In this document: positions 4,057-30,576 of the stretch, in pieces
Numbering within the stretch: the first letter of the stretch is position 1
Layout of the letters: each line of letters opens with the position of its first letter
IMG/VR virus record: IMGVR_UViG_3300025133_000019
Origin: a virus
Taxonomy: Duplodnaviria; Heunggongvirae; Uroviricota; Caudoviricetes
DNA: 64,000 nucleotides
Strand: one strand, 5' to 3'
Notes under the pieces: model-generated
What the model was told of the DNA's origin: nothing
Database searches by the model: none
What the model saw: only the letters and a program-made list of their open reading frames with translations
Translations under genes and position numbers: made by a program

Positions 4057-4320
4057 ATGTTCACGCAGATTTTTACGCAGGACTTGGTGGATTTAAGCTC
4101 GAATCCACCGATGAAATCCCTTTTGCTAGGTGTTATACATGAGAGCGATTTTCCGCTTATCTATCAAGCCGGAGGACAGTTCGACGTGAGCTGTGGCAGA
4201 CTAGAAATAAGTTTGAAAAGGGCGACTGCTCTTTTTCAGGAAAAACCTGACCAAATTTTTTGGTCAAGCGAGTTTGTAAAACTCGTATCGAATAATTCTA
4301 GTTTCACTCGATTATTCTAA
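4057..4320 (+). CDS. hypothetical protein
   Basis: Promoter cassette plus AAGGAGG SD. Confidence 0.7.
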   Translation: MFTQIFTQDLVDLSSNPPMKSLLLGVIHESDFPLIYQAGGQFDVSCGRLEISLKRATALFQEKPDQIFWSSEFVKLVSNNSSFTRLF

Positions 4321-4398
4321 CTTGACCGGATATCTCGAACACTAAACACACAAGGGGATCGAGTCCGGTCCCCACAAAAATTAAACAGGAGTTTACTT

Positions 4399-5419: not shown

Positions 5420-5648
5420 GATGAGGAACCAGGAATTCTGAACCTGGAACCGAAATTCCGAAACCTAAAATGGCCCCCTGATTTTTATCAGTACGGGCCA
5501 TTTTTGGGTCAACTGAGTTTGGTCACTTGACACAGGATCTCGGTTATTATGTATGAGAACGGGTAAACAATTGAGGCAGGGTGCCTCGATCCTCCGTTCC
5601 TTTCGCAAGGGGAAACAACAATTCTGTTTCCCCTACAAAGGAGTGTGT

Positions 5649-6715: not shown

Positions 6716-6778
6716 TCTCACTTTTCCCACTTGACCGAGTATCCGGGCTATTAAGTATGAAGGAACAAAGGAGGAATT

Positions 6779-7057
6779 ATGTCCACAAAAGAAGGACTGC
6801 AAGAGGAATTCCTTGCTTACCCTAAGCAAGTTTTCAACGGAAATGTATTGAACTATCACGTAGGCAAAGAAGGAGAGCAGTGGTTTCTTACTGACAATAG
6901 AGGAAATCAGTCCACGTTCACCTGCTTTGATGACGTGTGGAGTTGGTACGTTGGCATGGCCTCGGGATTGATAGCCAGTACCGGAATTATAAACTCGGAA
7001 TTACTTAAATCTCTATCGCTAACTACTTACAGACTACAAAAATTCTGTATGGCATAA
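6779..7057 (+). CDS. hypothetical protein
   Basis: Promoter at 6730; AACAAAGGAGG SD. Confidence 0.8.
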   Translation: MSTKEGLQEEFLAYPKQVFNGNVLNYHVGKEGEQWFLTDNRGNQSTFTCFDDVWSWYVGMASGLIASTGIINSELLKSLSLTTYRLQKFCMA

Positions 7058-9063: not shown

Positions 9064-9408
9064 ATGAATACTAAAACTCGCTTCGTGGTTACTGCTAATG
9101 AAAAATTTTTCATTAGAGAGGCCATGCTCCACAAACCGGAATTTAAAAGTGAAACCGTTATGTATCGAATCATCGAAGATTTTGATAATCAGTACCGAAT
9201 GATTATCGAGATTCCTAACGGTGACCCAGAAGAAAAGAGGGTCATTAATTTTTACTTGAAAAACTCCAGAATGGATATTGTTAACCAAGATCAAAAGGAT
9301 CTGGGGCCAATCGCTGGAGAATACAGCCTCACGCATAAAGGTGAGGTATACACAATTCGAGTCTTAGTTGGGCCTAACCAAGAAGAAGGAGGAAATCATG
9401 TTTACTAA
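9064..9408 (+). CDS. hypothetical protein
   Basis: Promoter cassette plus AAAGGATGG SD. Confidence 0.75.
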   Translation: MNTKTRFVVTANEKFFIREAMLHKPEFKSETVMYRIIEDFDNQYRMIIEIPNGDPEEKRVINFYLKNSRMDIVNQDQKDLGPIAGEYSLTHKGEVYTIRVLVGPNQEEGGNHVY

Positions 9409-9424
9409 CTTTTGACAACAAATA

Positions 9425-9897
9425 GGAGGGTCCGGTTCCTGCGATGAGTACGGAACCGGACCCTCCTCATATGTACAAAACTGAACTGATCTAGAGTTGT
9501 ACACACGTTCCTGGTAATGTACGTCCAGAACTAAGTACCCCCCTCTAGAGCAGTTTTTCCCTTTTTTTCGAAAAACATGTGGCTCGGGTCACATATATAA
9601 AATTTCGATTTTTCAAAAAAAGTAAATCCGGACTCTTAAAAGGTAGACAAATAATTAAATTCTACCGAGAAAAGAGTACTACTAATCCTGGTAACCCTGA
9701 TTCTACCGTTCTCTTACACCCACGCAAAATAACTGTTTTTCACGAAACCCCCGCAGAAATAACTCTTTTACCACTGAAATAACTGTTTTTCACGCCAACC
9801 TCCCTGTAATAACTATCCAAAAAATCCAGGCTATACAAATAATTAAATTCTATCGACATAACAGTACTATTAATCTCGGGAACCCTGATTCCACGGT
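9425..9897. repeat. non-coding repeat block: 15-bp perfect stem, ~60-bp imperfect direct repeat and four AATAACT units
   Basis: GGAGGGTCCGGTTCC...GGAACCGGACCCTCC; ACAAATAATTAAATTCTA...AGTACTA...AACCCTGATT at ~9647 and ~9835; AATAACTGTTTTTCACG at 9728 and 9778. Confidence 0.8.
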
Positions 9898-9927
9898 AAC
9901 CCCCAACCAGTTAATAAACACAGGGGC

Positions 9928-9956
9928 ATGACAACATCTGGATTATCTGTTATACT
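9928..9956 (+). promoter_or_regulatory. sigma70-type promoter, probably giving a leaderless mRNA at ATG 9963
   Basis: ATGACA-17-TATACT with extended TG; ATG 7 nt downstream, no SD. Confidence 0.6.
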
Positions 9957-13588: not shown

Positions 13589-13984
13589 ATGAAAGCTACA
13601 GGTAACATAAACAGACAGTTAAACAAAGGAGAGAACGAATCCGTAAGCCTTGCTGAACATATAGTTTCGTCGGAACTGACTAAGTGTAAGTATTGCGGGG
13701 ACTTGCTAACTCCGTACTCCGAATACACTTATGATTACAGCCACGCAAAATCCCGCTTCAAATCTAAAGTTGCTCATGTGTATTGTATTTTCTCTGAAAA
13801 AAACGTGGGAAAACCTTGTATTGTTTGTAATCAAATTCTAACGCCTTACAATATGGGACAGTCAAAATCTATCTATCGAAGAGCCCCTGTTCATTTGAAC
13901 TGTCTACCCACTAAAGAAGAAATGGATAGAACTAGAAATTCAAAAGGAATTGAAGACCGCAAAACTAAAGTTAGGGATGACTAG
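13589..13984 (+). CDS. TP[YF] zinc-finger array protein, 2 fingers
   Basis: CKYC.LTPY..HVYC; CIVC.LTPY..HLNC. Confidence 0.8.
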   Translation: MKATGNINRQLNKGENESVSLAEHIVSSELTKCKYCGDLLTPYSEYTYDYSHAKSRFKSKVAHVYCIFSEKNVGKPCIVCNQILTPYNMGQSKSIYRRAPVHLNCLPTKEEMDRTRNSKGIEDRKTKVRDD

Positions 13985-20273: not shown

Positions 20274-20579
20274 ATGAGAGCTGACCCGGACAAGGGCTTT
20301 AACAAAAGTACCGGATTCATCCTTAGGAATAAGGGTTGTAATTGGTGTAACCAGCCCTGTGTTACTTTGTACTGCTCTTGGCTATGTTATATATCATACA
20401 ACGGGCAAGTTTTTACTCATTGTATAGAATGTCTTAAAAGGATTACTCCTTACGACAAAAACATATCCCCTGTGTCTAGTATGTCTTTGGGAACGATCCT
20501 TAAAAAAGGAGTGGTCCACGACCACTGTAAAAAAGAATCATACGAAAAACGCTCTGGTTCTATTGATTTCTCCAGATAA
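20274..20579 (+). CDS. TP[YF] zinc-finger array protein (terminal member)
   Basis: CNWC..CSWLC; CIEC.ITPY..HDHC. Confidence 0.72.
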   Translation: MRADPDKGFNKSTGFILRNKGCNWCNQPCVTLYCSWLCYISYNGQVFTHCIECLKRITPYDKNISPVSSMSLGTILKKGVVHDHCKKESYEKRSGSIDFSR

Positions 20580-21098
20580 AAATCTTTTAAATCTCTTTGT
20601 TTCGTTCTCACGGTCCTTTTTTAGTAGGTCCAAACAGCTAGGTATTTCGTCTCTTTCATGGTTTTTGATAGCTAACCACACTAACTCTCTAGAAACCTCT
20701 CTAATATCACGTAATTCGCCCCCTGCCATACACAATGGCTCTAAGGTTGCCCCCCTAGTTTCCAAGTAATTAGATAAATCCCTAGAAACCGAGTCTGTAT
20801 TTAGCTTTCCTCCAGCTCCCTTGTGCTCGAAAAAGTCGTCGTTTTCAAAGAAAGAGCCTCTCACTATCACATAAAGCTCCATTTTTGAGGCCCCGGATAC
20901 TCTGTGGTATTCAGCTTTAACATCTGACAACACTGAAAAATCTAAGAGACCCTTCGAAGTTCTTATTTTAATGACGTTATCACTTGTATTAATCCGGCAA
21001 TCGCAAAATCTAGAGAAAAAGTCTTCCATCCCTCGGATAATTTCAGAGGACAAAGTAACAAAGTTAGAAAACTTAAAGTCCTCTTTATTCAGAAGCAT
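20538..21098 (-). CDS. hypothetical protein
   Basis: 186-aa ORF with GGAGG SD, convergent on the array. Confidence 0.7.
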   Translation of the reverse strand: MLLNKEDFKFSNFVTLSSEIIRGMEDFFSRFCDCRINTSDNVIKIRTSKGLLDFSVLSDVKAEYHRVSGASKMELYVIVRGSFFENDDFFEHKGAGGKLNTDSVSRDLSNYLETRGATLEPLCMAGGELRDIREVSRELVWLAIKNHERDEIPSCLDLLKKDRENETKRFKRFLSGEINRTRAFFV

Positions 21099-21261
21099 CT
21101 TTTGTATTCAGAGCCTCCACCTCTTCCTCAGTAAATTCCCGTTTAGCCGTTTGCTTAAGCTTTTCCGTCAATTCCGCAACTTTCTTTTTAAGTTCAGAAT
21201 TCTCCTTCTCCAGACTTTGTACGGTTCTCATTAATTCTGCATCTTCTTTTATTGAGCGCAT
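21085..21261 (-). CDS. small coiled-coil protein (58 aa, MRSIKEDAELMRTVQSLEKENSELKKKVAEL...)
   Basis: AAAGGCAGG SD; heptad pattern; not in ORF track. Confidence 0.65.
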   Translation of the reverse strand: MRSIKEDAELMRTVQSLEKENSELKKKVAELTEKLKQTAKREFTEEEVEALNTKDASE

Positions 21262-21682
21262 AATTCCTGCCTTTCAAAGTATACTCAATTGTATACTTTA
21301 GATTCTTGCTTCACAGAATCAGTTTCACTTGGAATAGTTGGTAACAACCACTCAAAGCCAGAGCTGATTTCTCCGCAAGCTTAAAGTTCCGCATGGCCTG
21401 CGGTATTTATACTTATTTTTTGTAGTTTTCTAAGATAACTTGGTTCTCGTTACTTAAAAGACTGTGGTAATAGTATAAACTGAATCTTTGTGTTTGTCAA
21501 TATTTATAGTGTTAGTATTATAAACACCTTTGAAAATACTTAAGCACAATTATGTTGCCTGAGTATTACTCCTTTTGACAATAGTAGTTCGAAACCTTAG
21601 TTATGTCAATCTATTTTAATTCTTTTTTTGATCCATATTAGACCAACTTGATAAAGTGTCCGGTATGCTGTAGTATATAACC

Positions 21683-21852
21683 ATACGAAAACATGAAAGT
21701 TATTGACACAAGTTATTAAACTTGTTGTAGATAACGGGTAGAGTAAAGCCCTTGTAAGTCGAGACTTGCTAAAAAGTGATAGTATCACTTAATACTCAAA
21801 TTAACCTCCTTTGTTTTCCTGGACTCGGTCTACACAGACCGAGTCCTTTTTT
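21683..21852 (+). ncRNA. candidate ~170-nt structured small RNA with exposed anti-SD tract
   Basis: TTGATA-17-TAGTAT promoter (21648-21676), several hairpins, CCTCCTTTGTT at 21805-21815, strong terminator, no substantial + strand ORF. Confidence 0.55.
21821..21852 (+). terminator. intrinsic terminator
   Basis: GGACTCGGTC-TACACA-GACCGAGTCC-TTTTTT. Confidence 0.9.
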
Positions 21853-21861
21853 AGTCCCTAA

Positions 21862-21890
21862 TTGATCAAAAGAATCTTAATCTATATAAT
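21862..21890 (+). promoter_or_regulatory. sigma70-type promoter for dNK
   Basis: TTGATC-17-TATAAT. Confidence 0.75.
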
Positions 21891-21910
21891 AAAGTTACTA
21901 TTATTTACCA

Positions 21911-22564
21911 ATGGAGAAGCTTATGAATTTATTTAAGATTTATGGAGTAATGGGGTGCGGTAAAAGCACTTTAACCGAAGCTCTTGCAAAAGAATTTAAT
22001 GCCTCGTTATGGATAGAACCTTTTAAGGAGAACCCCTTTTTACCCCTTTTTTACAAAGAAATGTCCGAAATACCCAATAATTCATATAATAAGTACGGTT
22101 TGCCCCTCCAATTATTTTTTCTTACTTCTTATATGAGACAGAATTCCGATATACTAGAGAACACTGGGAATATTAACATACAGGACGGAGGAGCTTTTAG
22201 TGGGTTTGCTTTTACAAAGACTCAATATCGAAGTGGTATGATAAGCAAGTTTGAGTACGAGTACTTTACTTCTCTTTTTAAAAATCTAAAATCTAGATTA
22301 GATATAAATTACTATACCTTTTATCTAGATTTAGACGTAAAAGAATCTTACCGGAGGGTTCTTAAACGTGCTAAAGAAGATCCTAGCCGGTCTCAGGAAA
22401 CCAGTGCTCCTATAGAATATCTAGAAATGCTGGACGAATGTTATAAAGAAGCTTTTGAGGAGTTAGAAATACCAGTAGAATATGTGGATGTTAACGGGTT
22501 AAGTATTGAAGAAGGGTCAGAAATGTTTTCTGGCCGAATAGAGACTTTAGTAAAGAGACTTTAA
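21911..22564 (+). CDS. deoxynucleoside kinase
   Basis: P-loop GVMGCGKST, EP...NPFLPLFY, LQLFFL, RVLKR, EYLEML. Confidence 0.88.
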   Translation: MEKLMNLFKIYGVMGCGKSTLTEALAKEFNASLWIEPFKENPFLPLFYKEMSEIPNNSYNKYGLPLQLFFLTSYMRQNSDILENTGNINIQDGGAFSGFAFTKTQYRSGMISKFEYEYFTSLFKNLKSRLDINYYTFYLDLDVKESYRRVLKRAKEDPSRSQETSAPIEYLEMLDECYKEAFEELEIPVEYVDVNGLSIEEGSEMFSGRIETLVKRL

Positions 22565-28173: not shown

Positions 28174-30576
28174 ATGTTACAAGAAATACTTAAATCCATT
28201 ATAGACCTCAGAGAAAAAGAGTGGGGAGAGCGGAGAATAGCACAACACTTTAAAGAAAAGGGCTTTTCTTTTATGACTCGTTACAAGGTGAACGAGTTAA
28301 TTAATGGTCTGGATAATTTCAACCTGGAATTCTACCAAGGAAAAACTTTAGAAGAGGTTTTTCCTAGCATAGCTGTCCAGAACAAAAGAATCACTGAGAA
28401 CAGTATTGAAGAAGACAGGAAACTCAAAAAAGTCAAGTCTGAGAGGGACTCGTACAAGAAGAAGTACGACCAGCTAATGAAGGAAAACAAAGACCTTCAA
28501 GAAAGACAAGATCTTTTAGATGATGTGGAAAGAAACTTTGATGTTAGTAAAGTAACTAAAAGTATCCCTGTTACACCTAAGAACTCCAAAAACATGGACC
28601 GGGCTACTGCGTTTATGATAGCTAGCGATTGGCATATTGAGGAGAGGGTAGACCCGGCGACCATTAACGGGTTAAACGAGTATAATTTGTCTATCTCTGA
28701 GGCGAGATCAAGAGAGTTTTTTAGAAACGGAGTAGACCTTTTAAATAACATGTCTACTTTCCATCAGATAGATACTCTAGTTTTAGGATTACTCGGGGAC
28801 ATGATAACTGGGTATATACACGAAGAGCTAATGGAAAGCAATGAATGCTCTCCAACTCTGGCAATGCTAAGAGCCCAAGAGTATATTACATGGGGTATTG
28901 AATACATCCTTAAAAATACTGAACTAAATGAGATTATTATCCCTTGTTGTTTCGGAAACCACGGACGAACAACCCAGAAAAGAAGGATAAGTACTGGTTA
29001 CTCTAATTCTTTTGAGTGGGCTATGTATAAAAACTTGGAAAAAATGTATGAGGATCACGAGCAGATAGAGTTCATCGTAGCTACCGGGTCTCACATATAT
29101 TTAGAAATCTTTGAAAACTTTACAGTAAGATTCCATCACGGAGATGATATTAGATATCTTGGCGGTGTAGGAGGATTAACTATTCCTCTTAATAAAGCTA
29201 TAGCTGGGTGGGACACCGTAAAAAAGGCAGACTTAACAGTCATTGGTCACTTTCATCAACTCACTGATACAGGAAACGCTGTTGTTAACGGATGCTTCAC
29301 GGAAGACATGCTAATAACTATGGAAAACGGCACTAGAAAATCTATTGCTGAAGTCCAGATTGGTGAGAAAGTTTTAACAAGAACTGGAGAATCTCATAGG
29401 GTTGTTAATACGTTAAAGAGGCCCCACAACGATAGATTACTCAATATAAGGTTCCAAGGCAAACAAAACGATATTAGGTGTACTCCTAACCACGAATTTT
29501 GGGCCATAAAAAACAATAGGACTTCTCAAACCTTAAGGCCGAGAGGAACTAAGGATTACACAAGAACTCCTGAATTTTTAGAGGCTGAGTGGATACCCGC
29601 CGAGTGTCTGAACAAGGGTGACTTAATACAAATTCCTTGGGACAAAGAGATTGTTGATGATCCTAATCTGGACTTAGACTTCTGTAGATTACTGGGATTT
29701 TACTTGGCAGAAGGTTCCATATCAAGACGTTATACTAAAAAAGAAAAAGTTGAAAAACTAAACCAAATAAATTTTACATTTCATATAGATGAAGTAGAAT
29801 ATTCTGACTTTGTTGAAAAAACTTTGAAAGATAGATTTGATTGCCATATAGGTCTCTCAGTTAGAGACGAAAAAACTACACGAGCTGTAGTTGTTAGTAG
29901 AGAACATATTTCAAATAGATTTTATGAGCTATGTGGTAAAGGCTCCCACAACAAAATAATGAGTGAAGTCTTGATGAAGCTACCGCCCGAGAAGCAGGAA
30001 CAAATTCTCATGGGATGGATTCAAGGGGACGGGCATGTTAACAAGGGCAACTCTGCCAAGGGAAGATTCAGAAACGTGTCGGGAGCGACTGTTAGTTTTG
30101 ATTTAGCTTGTCAAATGTACATTTTAGCTCTTAGATGCGGTCTCAAGCCGAGGCTATACTCCCAACAAGCTAATTCGCAAAGAAAAAGTAATTGTTATGC
30201 CATCCACTTCGGAAAAGAAGATTACCATAAAATTCTTGAGGAAATGGACGATGGAAAAATAAAAGCCGAATTTAGGCAAAGTTCCCAGTTCAGAAAGACC
30301 GATATAGGAATGAGAGAGGTTGACGGAGACCTATTCGTACCTATAGAAAATATTTGGTCCGAAGATTTTAACGGATCTGTTTATGATCTACAAGTAGAAA
30401 ATGAACATTCCTATGTGGTAAATGGAATAGGAGTTCACAACTCTTTAATTGGTTTTGGGCCTTACGCATTGTCAATAAAGGCTTCGTATGAGCCTGCTCA
30501 GCAAGCGTTTTTCTTAGTTCATGAGACTCATGGAAAAACTATATTCTCGCCCATTCAAGTAATGGTTGAAGATTAA
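28174..30576 (+). CDS. calcineurin-like metallophosphoesterase with N-terminal HTH/coiled coil, interrupted by an intein
   Basis: SDWH, GDMITG, GNHGR, HHGD, GHFH, and NG|SL after splicing. Confidence 0.85.
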   Translation: MLQEILKSIIDLREKEWGERRIAQHFKEKGFSFMTRYKVNELINGLDNFNLEFYQGKTLEEVFPSIAVQNKRITENSIEEDRKLKKVKSERDSYKKKYDQLMKENKDLQERQDLLDDVERNFDVSKVTKSIPVTPKNSKNMDRATAFMIASDWHIEERVDPATINGLNEYNLSISEARSREFFRNGVDLLNNMSTFHQIDTLVLGLLGDMITGYIHEELMESNECSPTLAMLRAQEYITWGIEYILKNTELNEIIIPCCFGNHGRTTQKRRISTGYSNSFEWAMYKNLEKMYEDHEQIEFIVATGSHIYLEIFENFTVRFHHGDDIRYLGGVGGLTIPLNKAIAGWDTVKKADLTVIGHFHQLTDTGNAVVNGCFTEDMLITMENGTRKSIAEVQIGEKVLTRTGESHRVVNTLKRPHNDRLLNIRFQGKQNDIRCTPNHEFWAIKNNRTSQTLRPRGTKDYTRTPEFLEAEWIPAECLNKGDLIQIPWDKEIVDDPNLDLDFCRLLGFYLAEGSISRRYTKKEKVEKLNQINFTFHIDEVEYSDFVEKTLKDRFDCHIGLSVRDEKTTRAVVVSREHISNRFYELCGKGSHNKIMSEVLMKLPPEKQEQILMGWIQGDGHVNKGNSAKGRFRNVSGATVSFDLACQMYILALRCGLKPRLYSQQANSQRKSNCYAIHFGKEDYHKILEEMDDGKIKAEFRQSSQFRKTDIGMREVDGDLFVPIENIWSEDFNGSVYDLQVENEHSYVVNGIGVHNSLIGFGPYALSIKASYEPAQQAFFLVHETHGKTIFSPIQVMVED
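29293..30441 (+). mobile_element. intein (383 aa) with LAGLIDADG homing endonuclease
   Basis: Starts CFTEDMLIT; block B TPNHEF; LLGFYLAEG and LMGWIQGDG; ends VYDLQVENEHSYVVNGIGVHN|S. Confidence 0.93.

Follow-up and report, generated by a model that had tools for sequence, protein, structure and literature searches.

A conserved anti-Shine-Dalgarno tract and terminator mark a candidate small RNA upstream of a deoxynucleoside kinase gene in a jumbo phage

What occupies the 650-nt gap without genes (positions 21262-21910) that precedes the deoxynucleoside kinase gene of the virus recorded as IMGVR_UViG_3300025133_000019, and on which strand would it act? The window analyzed here, a stretch of 64,000 nt, is part of a 374,268-bp metagenomic contig, which makes this phage a jumbo phage, and to our knowledge very few regulatory RNAs have been described from lytic and jumbo phages. 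A sequence-only reading of the gap had proposed a later-expressed antisense RNA with a multibranch body, a single-stranded anti-Shine-Dalgarno (anti-SD) tract and a terminator, which would mask the ribosome-binding sites (RBSs) of early genes. We find that, as judged from sequence, the comparison of three lineages agrees best with a plus-strand non-coding RNA that exposes an anti-SD tract; the tract and terminator form a conserved module, and the body structure, the timing and the specific targeting of early genes in that proposal are not well supported.

The gap lies between two syntenic anchors. Upstream is a divergent gene for a 58-aa coiled-coil protein (21085..21261, minus strand), and to its left a second minus-strand gene encodes a 186-aa protein (20538-21098) that matched only itself in a protein search; downstream is the deoxynucleoside kinase (dNK) gene (21911..22564, plus strand; PF01712, E 4e-25). 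Two sigma70-like promoters on the minus strand, TTGACA-17-TACTAT (21581..21609; 10/12 match) and a second at 21500..21472 (11/12), point away from the putative small RNA and would drive the 58-aa and 186-aa genes, and the dNK gene has a separate promoter-like site of its own, TTGATC-17-TATAAT (21862..21890, plus strand; 10/12). A search for tRNA and tmRNA found none, the gene caller placed no ORF in the gap of the identical JGI contig, and comparison of the three lineages introduced below gave no conserved ORF in the gap on either strand. An operator-like palindrome, AAAGTATAC-TCAATT-GTATACTTT (21297-21320), is present just upstream of the RBS of the 58-aa gene.

On its plus strand the gap carries the pyrimidine tract AACCTCCTTTGTT (21803..21815), whose core, ACCTCCTTT (21804-21812) or ACCUCCUUU as RNA, we take to be the canonical 3' tail of 16S rRNA, that is, the anti-SD sequence. 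This core is the sole occurrence of ACCTCCTTT/AAAGGAGGT within the 64-kb window. Downstream of it is an intrinsic terminator (21821..21852, plus strand) of the form GGACTCGGTCT-ACAC-AGACCGAGTCC followed by T6, an 11-bp perfect stem with an ACAC loop, just as the sequence-only reading had described it. The terminator is expected to act on the plus strand only, because on the minus strand the hairpin has A6 before it and no U after it.

The window has no close relative by blastn among 50,697 phage records; an exact 19-mer had no match in the IMG/VR collection scanned, which does not include the window's phage, and the dNK likewise had none there in either a single-protein or a profile search. 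A dNK profile search gave high-scoring matches in two further lineages only, both from metagenomes only: lineage A (L003, L005-L009, L013, L015) and lineage B (L004, L010-L012, L014, L016, L137-L144), which we compare with the window's own lineage, W. Their kinases are 62% identical to the dNK of W, their small coiled-coil proteins (62 aa in A, 88 aa in B) are 33-40% identical to the 58-aa protein, and the second gene of B encodes a 175-aa protein that is 30% identical to the 186-aa protein of W. Both keep the same synteny, with the small gene running leftwards, a gap of ~250 nt and then the kinase. The small coiled-coil genes (window 21085-21261; L006 2570-2758; L010 2476-2742; minus strand) are always divergent from the sRNA-like element, and their products of 58, 62 and 88 aa share the conserved C-terminal motif KLKQTAKRELTxEEVxALN; this protein may regulate the element or be one of its targets.

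The gaps themselves cannot be aligned across the three lineages except for one island, ACCTCCTTT(G/T)TT (window 21804-21815; L006 2886-2897; L010 2877-2888), the pattern of a seed that is kept as the rest drifts. In W, A and B alike a plus-strand terminator begins 6-8 nt after this island, and its stem differs in sequence each time (GGACTCGGTCT in W, GAACCCGGATC in A, GGGACTAG in B). MAFFT did not align the three stems in register, and three lineages allow no real covariation test beyond the terminator. The structures upstream of the island in A and B are different hairpins from those of W, and the variants within lineage B provide two SNPs in the gap, too few to inform. At the locus of a more distant dNK, P0021, recovered by exhaustive HMMER search, the neighbors are different, the gap is 96 nt long and the element is absent. 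A loose pattern scan of IMG/VR for the tract with a downstream T-run returned 119 loci, seven of them with a stable hairpin after the tract, and none of these loci resembled the window locus by sequence or layout.

Accessibility of the tract is predicted to be conserved along with its sequence. In W the segment AAUACUCAAAUUAACCUCCUU (21791-21811) is predicted to be open, with a probability of being unpaired of 0.75-0.99, and for CCUCCUU this probability is 0.75-1.0 in each of W, A and B, for the long and the short version of the RNA alike. The 3' part of the tract, UGUUUUC, is predicted to be paired as a result of the GAAAACA/UGUUUUC closure of the fold described below.

Hfq-binding modules consist of a U-rich stretch that runs into a terminator hairpin ending in a U-tail, and by sequence this layout, with a U-tail of at least six, is found in all three lineages: UUUGUUUU, stem and U6 in W; UUUUUU, stem and U7 in A; and UUUGUU, stem and U6 in B. 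It lends itself to an alternative reading, which we consider unlikely, in which the terminator ends, or insulates against, plus-strand read-through from the upstream zinc-finger gene array, or ends a short RNA. The tract would then be a platform for protein binding, for instance by Hfq (as the U-rich half of its binding module), by ribosomal protein S1 or by another pyrimidine binder, and not an SD-pairing seed. Besides the Hfq-like layout, no plus-strand terminator was found between the end of the last plus-strand gene (20579) and 21821, and in lineage A the last plus-strand gene abuts the small minus-strand gene with no terminator between them. However, the invariant part of the tract is CCUCC plus UUU, more than a run of U; binding by Hfq or S1 would not need a 9-nt anti-SD identity in three lineages; and read-through would need to pass strong promoters, and genes, of the opposite orientation. 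Even if the tract were a protein-binding site or decoy, it would still be a conserved non-coding element in a poorly known phage group.

A promoter-like site, TTGATA-17-TAGTAT (21648..21676, plus strand), does stand where a sigma70-type promoter had been claimed, but as the putative promoter of the small RNA it matches at only 9/12 positions and by itself is not above chance; promoter-like sites are not enriched in the region, with 11 found vs 8.8 expected from shuffled sequence. Plus-strand promoter candidates in A and B reach 8-9/12 only and overlap the -10 boxes of the minus-strand promoters. The 170-nt plus-strand RNA of W (21683-21852) folds to -54.2 kcal/mol (z -6.4). Without the terminator, the putative body (21683..21820) has a fold z of -4.06 on the plus strand vs -2.83 on the minus strand, and it ranks 43rd among 2130 GC-corrected windows of the same length taken across the whole window as controls. 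Hairpins 1, 2 and 3 each contain one G.U pair that would be an A-C mismatch on the minus strand.

The body is predicted to form a five-way junction closed by P1, in which GAAAACA (21687-21693) pairs with UGUUUUC (21812-21818). All four hairpins named in the sequence-only reading (21699-21735, 21736-21751, 21754-21769 and 21774-21790, plus strand) appear in the minimum-energy fold, but the GAGUA/UACUC closure that it had proposed is 3.7 kcal/mol worse than GAAAACA/UGUUUUC. The body sequence is identical in L001, has no counterpart by sequence in lineages A or B, and shows no similarity to anything else in the window or in the loci; the multibranch body is specific to the window's lineage. We also considered and dropped a conserved closing helix between a 5' AAACA and the 3' flank of the tract, which is near-isoenergetic with the best fold in A and costs 5 kcal/mol in B. 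The whole window gave no match to Rfam 15 at gathering scores; at E up to 10, the region 21200-21950 gave only a terminator-level match to ncr1241 (28 bits vs a cut-off of 60), and the covariance models of Cuckoo/ar14, RsaE/RoxS and other curated Rfam families did not recognize the element.

The position of the element immediately upstream of dNK is constant in the three lineages, and its order of structured body, terminator and gene resembles that of a riboswitch. The RNA starting from 21648 might on this account be a leader or attenuator of dNK, its transcription either ending at the terminator or continuing into the gene, with the tract taking part in a switch or masking the SD of dNK. We regard such a cis-acting role as very unlikely: the body is not a conserved, aptamer-like one and matches no Rfam family, reading the sequence suggested no convincing antiterminator pairing, the dNK SDs match the tract over 4-5 nt only, and a promoter-like site lies between the terminator and dNK in each lineage (TTGCAT-17-TACACT in A and TGTATAAT in B, in addition to the site in W). 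Because a separate dNK promoter follows the terminator in all three lineages, the unit may be self-contained. The sequence TCCC right after the T-run of the terminator is also conserved (window 21853-21867; L006 2941-2959; L010 2927-2935); in W and A only 3 nt separate it from the -35 box of the kinase promoter, an arrangement resembling the TTCCCAC-TTGAC upstream box of the early promoters.

The similar distance between the island and the dNK promoter in the three lineages could instead reflect a DNA site. The 9-11 bp, which precede the dNK -35 box by ~50-60 bp, would then serve for example as an operator or to bind an activator, and the likeness to the anti-SD sequence would be coincidental. 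This we hold to be highly unlikely, as the site has neither a dyad nor a repeat partner, a terminator of lineage-specific sequence occupies the DNA in between, and an exact 9-nt identity to the anti-SD sequence is unlikely to be a coincidence.

The strand on which the tract would act must be weighed with care, because its reverse complement is a perfect SD, is the only copy in the window and resembles the early RBSs. Read on the minus strand (21785..21815), the tract becomes AACAAAGGAGG, followed after 5 nt by TTG AGT ATT AAG TGA, a mini-ORF of 4 codons that starts at 21799 and encodes MSIK-stop. The tract could then be a real SD, either for a mini-ORF that encodes MSIK in W and MKS in B or for ribosomes that reinitiate at the GTG of a 60-codon ORF (21788..21606) in W, an account we judge to be quite unlikely. 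It would have in its favor the best SD in the window, a geometry near that of the early cassettes (AACAAAGGAG and 6 nt to TTG, vs 5 nt to ATG), the overlap between the TGA of the mini-ORF and the GTG of the non-conserved 60-codon ORF, and the presence of another strong SD with a 5-codon ORF at 9383-9416. Against this, no start codon (ATG, GTG or TTG) occurs within 12 nt of the minus-strand SD in lineage A; in lineage B the SD is followed by ATG AAA AGC TAG, 3 codons encoding MKS; and neither the mini-ORFs nor the 60-codon ORF is conserved. Longer minus-strand ORFs span 60 codons in W and 34-38 in A and are absent from B, and those of W and A share no similarity. The outcome that the sequence-only reading had named as fatal to it, a translated minus-strand gene with the tract as its SD, is disfavored by the three lineages: A lacks a start codon at SD spacing, and the reading frames of W and B stop after 4 and 3 codons.

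Promoters and termination point the same way. The strong minus-strand promoters (11/12 in A, 10/12 in B, 10/12 and 11/12 in W) lie between the tract and the small gene, so the tract would not be in that mRNA, and no credible minus-strand promoter was found upstream of the tract in any lineage; the adjoining hairpin, moreover, terminates on the plus strand only. A plus-strand RNA is favored because of this one-sided terminator, the fold bias towards the plus strand and the lack of a credible minus-strand gene, or of a credible minus-strand promoter upstream of the tract. A type I toxin-antitoxin or cis-antisense arrangement was rejected separately: the 60-codon ORF has no counterpart in B, is unlike the ORF of A and has no Pfam match.

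We give about even credence to the reading that the gap encodes an independent plus-strand small non-coding RNA whose conserved, unpaired ACCUCCUUU before the terminator could block ribosome-binding sites. Such an RNA would be ~170 nt long in W and either 55-70 nt or ~157 nt in the relatives, depending on an uncertain 5' end, and would end in a 3' module of upstream structure, single-stranded ACCUCCUUU(G/U)UU and an intrinsic terminator 6-8 nt further on. From the three lineages, the minimal functional module may be narrowed to single-stranded ACCUCCUUU, a spacer of 6-8 nt and the terminator. Since the tract equals the anti-SD tail of the ribosome, the RNA would be expected to pair with strong SD sites (AAAGGAGGU), and in the simplest mechanism pairing with AAAGGAGG-type SD sites would block ribosome loading. 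Transcription of the RNA, its base-pairing to mRNAs, the identity of its targets and its timing are what we infer from these features. If correct, this would be a simple way for a phage to switch off early or host genes at the level of translation.

Candidate targets within the window were sought among the complements of the tract. The sequence AACAAAGGAG occurs at 203(-), 2656(-), 6764(+), 13622(+) and 21806(-), five matches vs 0.19 expected, and ACAAAGGAG additionally at 5635. The sequence-only reading had identified the complement of the tract as the RBS of the genes at 197, 2650, 6779 and 5649, and the starts of these genes do follow the sites; the further occurrence that it noted at 13621 in the zinc-finger block corresponds to the match at 13622(+). 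Three of these sites trace to one early promoter-RBS cassette, ...TTCTCACTTGACCCAGTATCCGGGCTATTAAATAT-AACAAAGGAG: those at 203 and 2656 lie in identical copies of it, and the one at 6764 lies in a closely related variant. As three RBS matches fall in copies of one cassette, the matches are not independent.

Between 240 and 9022, on both strands, 14 near-identical early promoters make up one family, with the consensus TTCYCAC-TTGAYC-nrGTATCYnGR-TAYTAR, a TAYTAR box only 12 nt after the TTGAC box and an RBS almost at once after it; a profile built from 12 of them recovered two more, at 4322 and 7922. Outside the family, the site at 21648 scores highest against its -35/spacer profile, at 7 bits vs at least 26 for members, and it is without the -10-type downstream box that members have. 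Later expression of the RNA, as had been proposed, has no support; its promoter is weak and if anything nearest to the -35/spacer profile of the early promoters.

Predicted duplexes between the tract and 196 candidate translation-start regions in the window put early-cassette genes in six of the eight best places, setting aside the tract's own antisense and one duplicated row. The gene at 6779 leads at -20.1 kcal/mol, followed by those at 4057, 5649, 2650, 197 and 5177, and when all 40-nt windows are considered the energy of the 6779 duplex is not separated from a continuous tail of matches. The strongest SD sites of the phage are those of its early promoter-RBS cassettes, which would make them the best target candidates within the window; early genes are enriched among the predicted targets mostly because their SDs are the strongest, and a perfect anti-SD seed would be promiscuous. 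The 10-11-nt matches to early RBSs are largely one duplicated cassette in three copies together with generic SD complementarity and do not show specific targeting; shut-off of early or host translation would be a possible consequence of the pairing. In ~22 kb of lineage B DNA there was no other AAAGGAGG and no early cassette. If early RBSs in lineage A were to read AAAAAAGGAGG, as against AACAAAGGAGG in W and B, then seed and targets would co-vary.

By analogy with known systems, the best reading is a phage-carried sRNA with an anti-SD seed, similar to the cuckoo/CcsR and RoxS/RsaE RNAs and apparently outside the curated families. The cuckoo/alpha-r14 sRNAs, which include CcsR1-4 of Rhodobacter and NfeR1 of Sinorhizobium, carry CCUCCUCCC anti-SD motifs (PMC4615179, PMC8034643, PMC10746234). 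The candidate resembles them as a short RNA of freely varying sequence with an exposed CCUCC-type motif, an intrinsic terminator and presumed pairing with RBSs. It differs in being phage-borne, in having no Rfam match and in placing a single copy of the motif in a single-stranded linker before the terminator, where the cuckoo RNAs have a hairpin-loop motif that is usually repeated. In low-GC Gram-positives, RoxS/RsaE, RNAIII of S. aureus and the Rsa RNAs present CCCC/UCCC loop seeds, and such C-rich seeds complement the SD core and block ribosome loading on several mRNAs. The tract shares with RoxS/RsaE-type RNAs a seed complementary to the SD core; unlike them it has 9 nt identical to the 16S tail (ACCUCCUUU), and Rfam indicates no homology.

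Antisense RNAs that mask an RBS are also known from phages, namely c4 of P1/P7 and sar of P22, which have long, specific complementarity to one neighbor. Like them the candidate would be a phage-encoded small RNA that is proposed to block RBSs, but its conserved part is a generic anti-SD sequence. For the proposed early shut-off a functional analogy, and no closer one, can be drawn with the RegB endoribonuclease of T4, which cuts the GGAG of early-gene SDs and so silences early mRNAs (PMC1702504, PMC3014915). RegB is itself a protein, a nuclease assisted by ribosomal protein S1, whereas the agent here would be an RNA masking the site. A bolder and, in our view, rather doubtful extension is that a phage copy of the 16S rRNA 3' tail acts broadly as a "Shine-Dalgarno sponge" that would vie with ribosomes for the strongest SDs and so reprogram translation during infection. 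Both the early cassettes of the phage and host mRNAs with strong SDs would then be affected, and the element would be the RNA equivalent of T4 RegB, kept across a clade of marine jumbo phages.

Several features elsewhere in the window were recorded in passing. Between 9383 and 9465, a 5-codon ORF (ATG TTT ACT AAC TTT TGA) has a strong SD (AAGAAGGAGG) before it and a perfect 15-bp hairpin, GGAGGGTCCGGTTCC / GGAACCGGACCCTCC, after it; this hairpin is the most stable local fold of the window at -5 SD in a GC-corrected scan. The non-coding stretch at 9560-9930 contains three to four iteron-like copies of AAATAACT(G/C)TTTT(T/A)CAC (~9728-9815) and two direct repeats of ~60 nt beginning CAAATAATTAAATTCTA (~9648 and ~9837), and looks like an origin or regulatory region. 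The 800-aa protein encoded at 28174-30576 on the plus strand contains an intein that includes a LAGLIDADG endonuclease domain (Pfam Intein_splicing, LAGLIDADG_3 and Hint); the N-terminal part of the protein is 31-37% identical to cyanophage and Bacteroides-phage proteins, of which one is annotated as a DNA repair exonuclease and all others as hypothetical.
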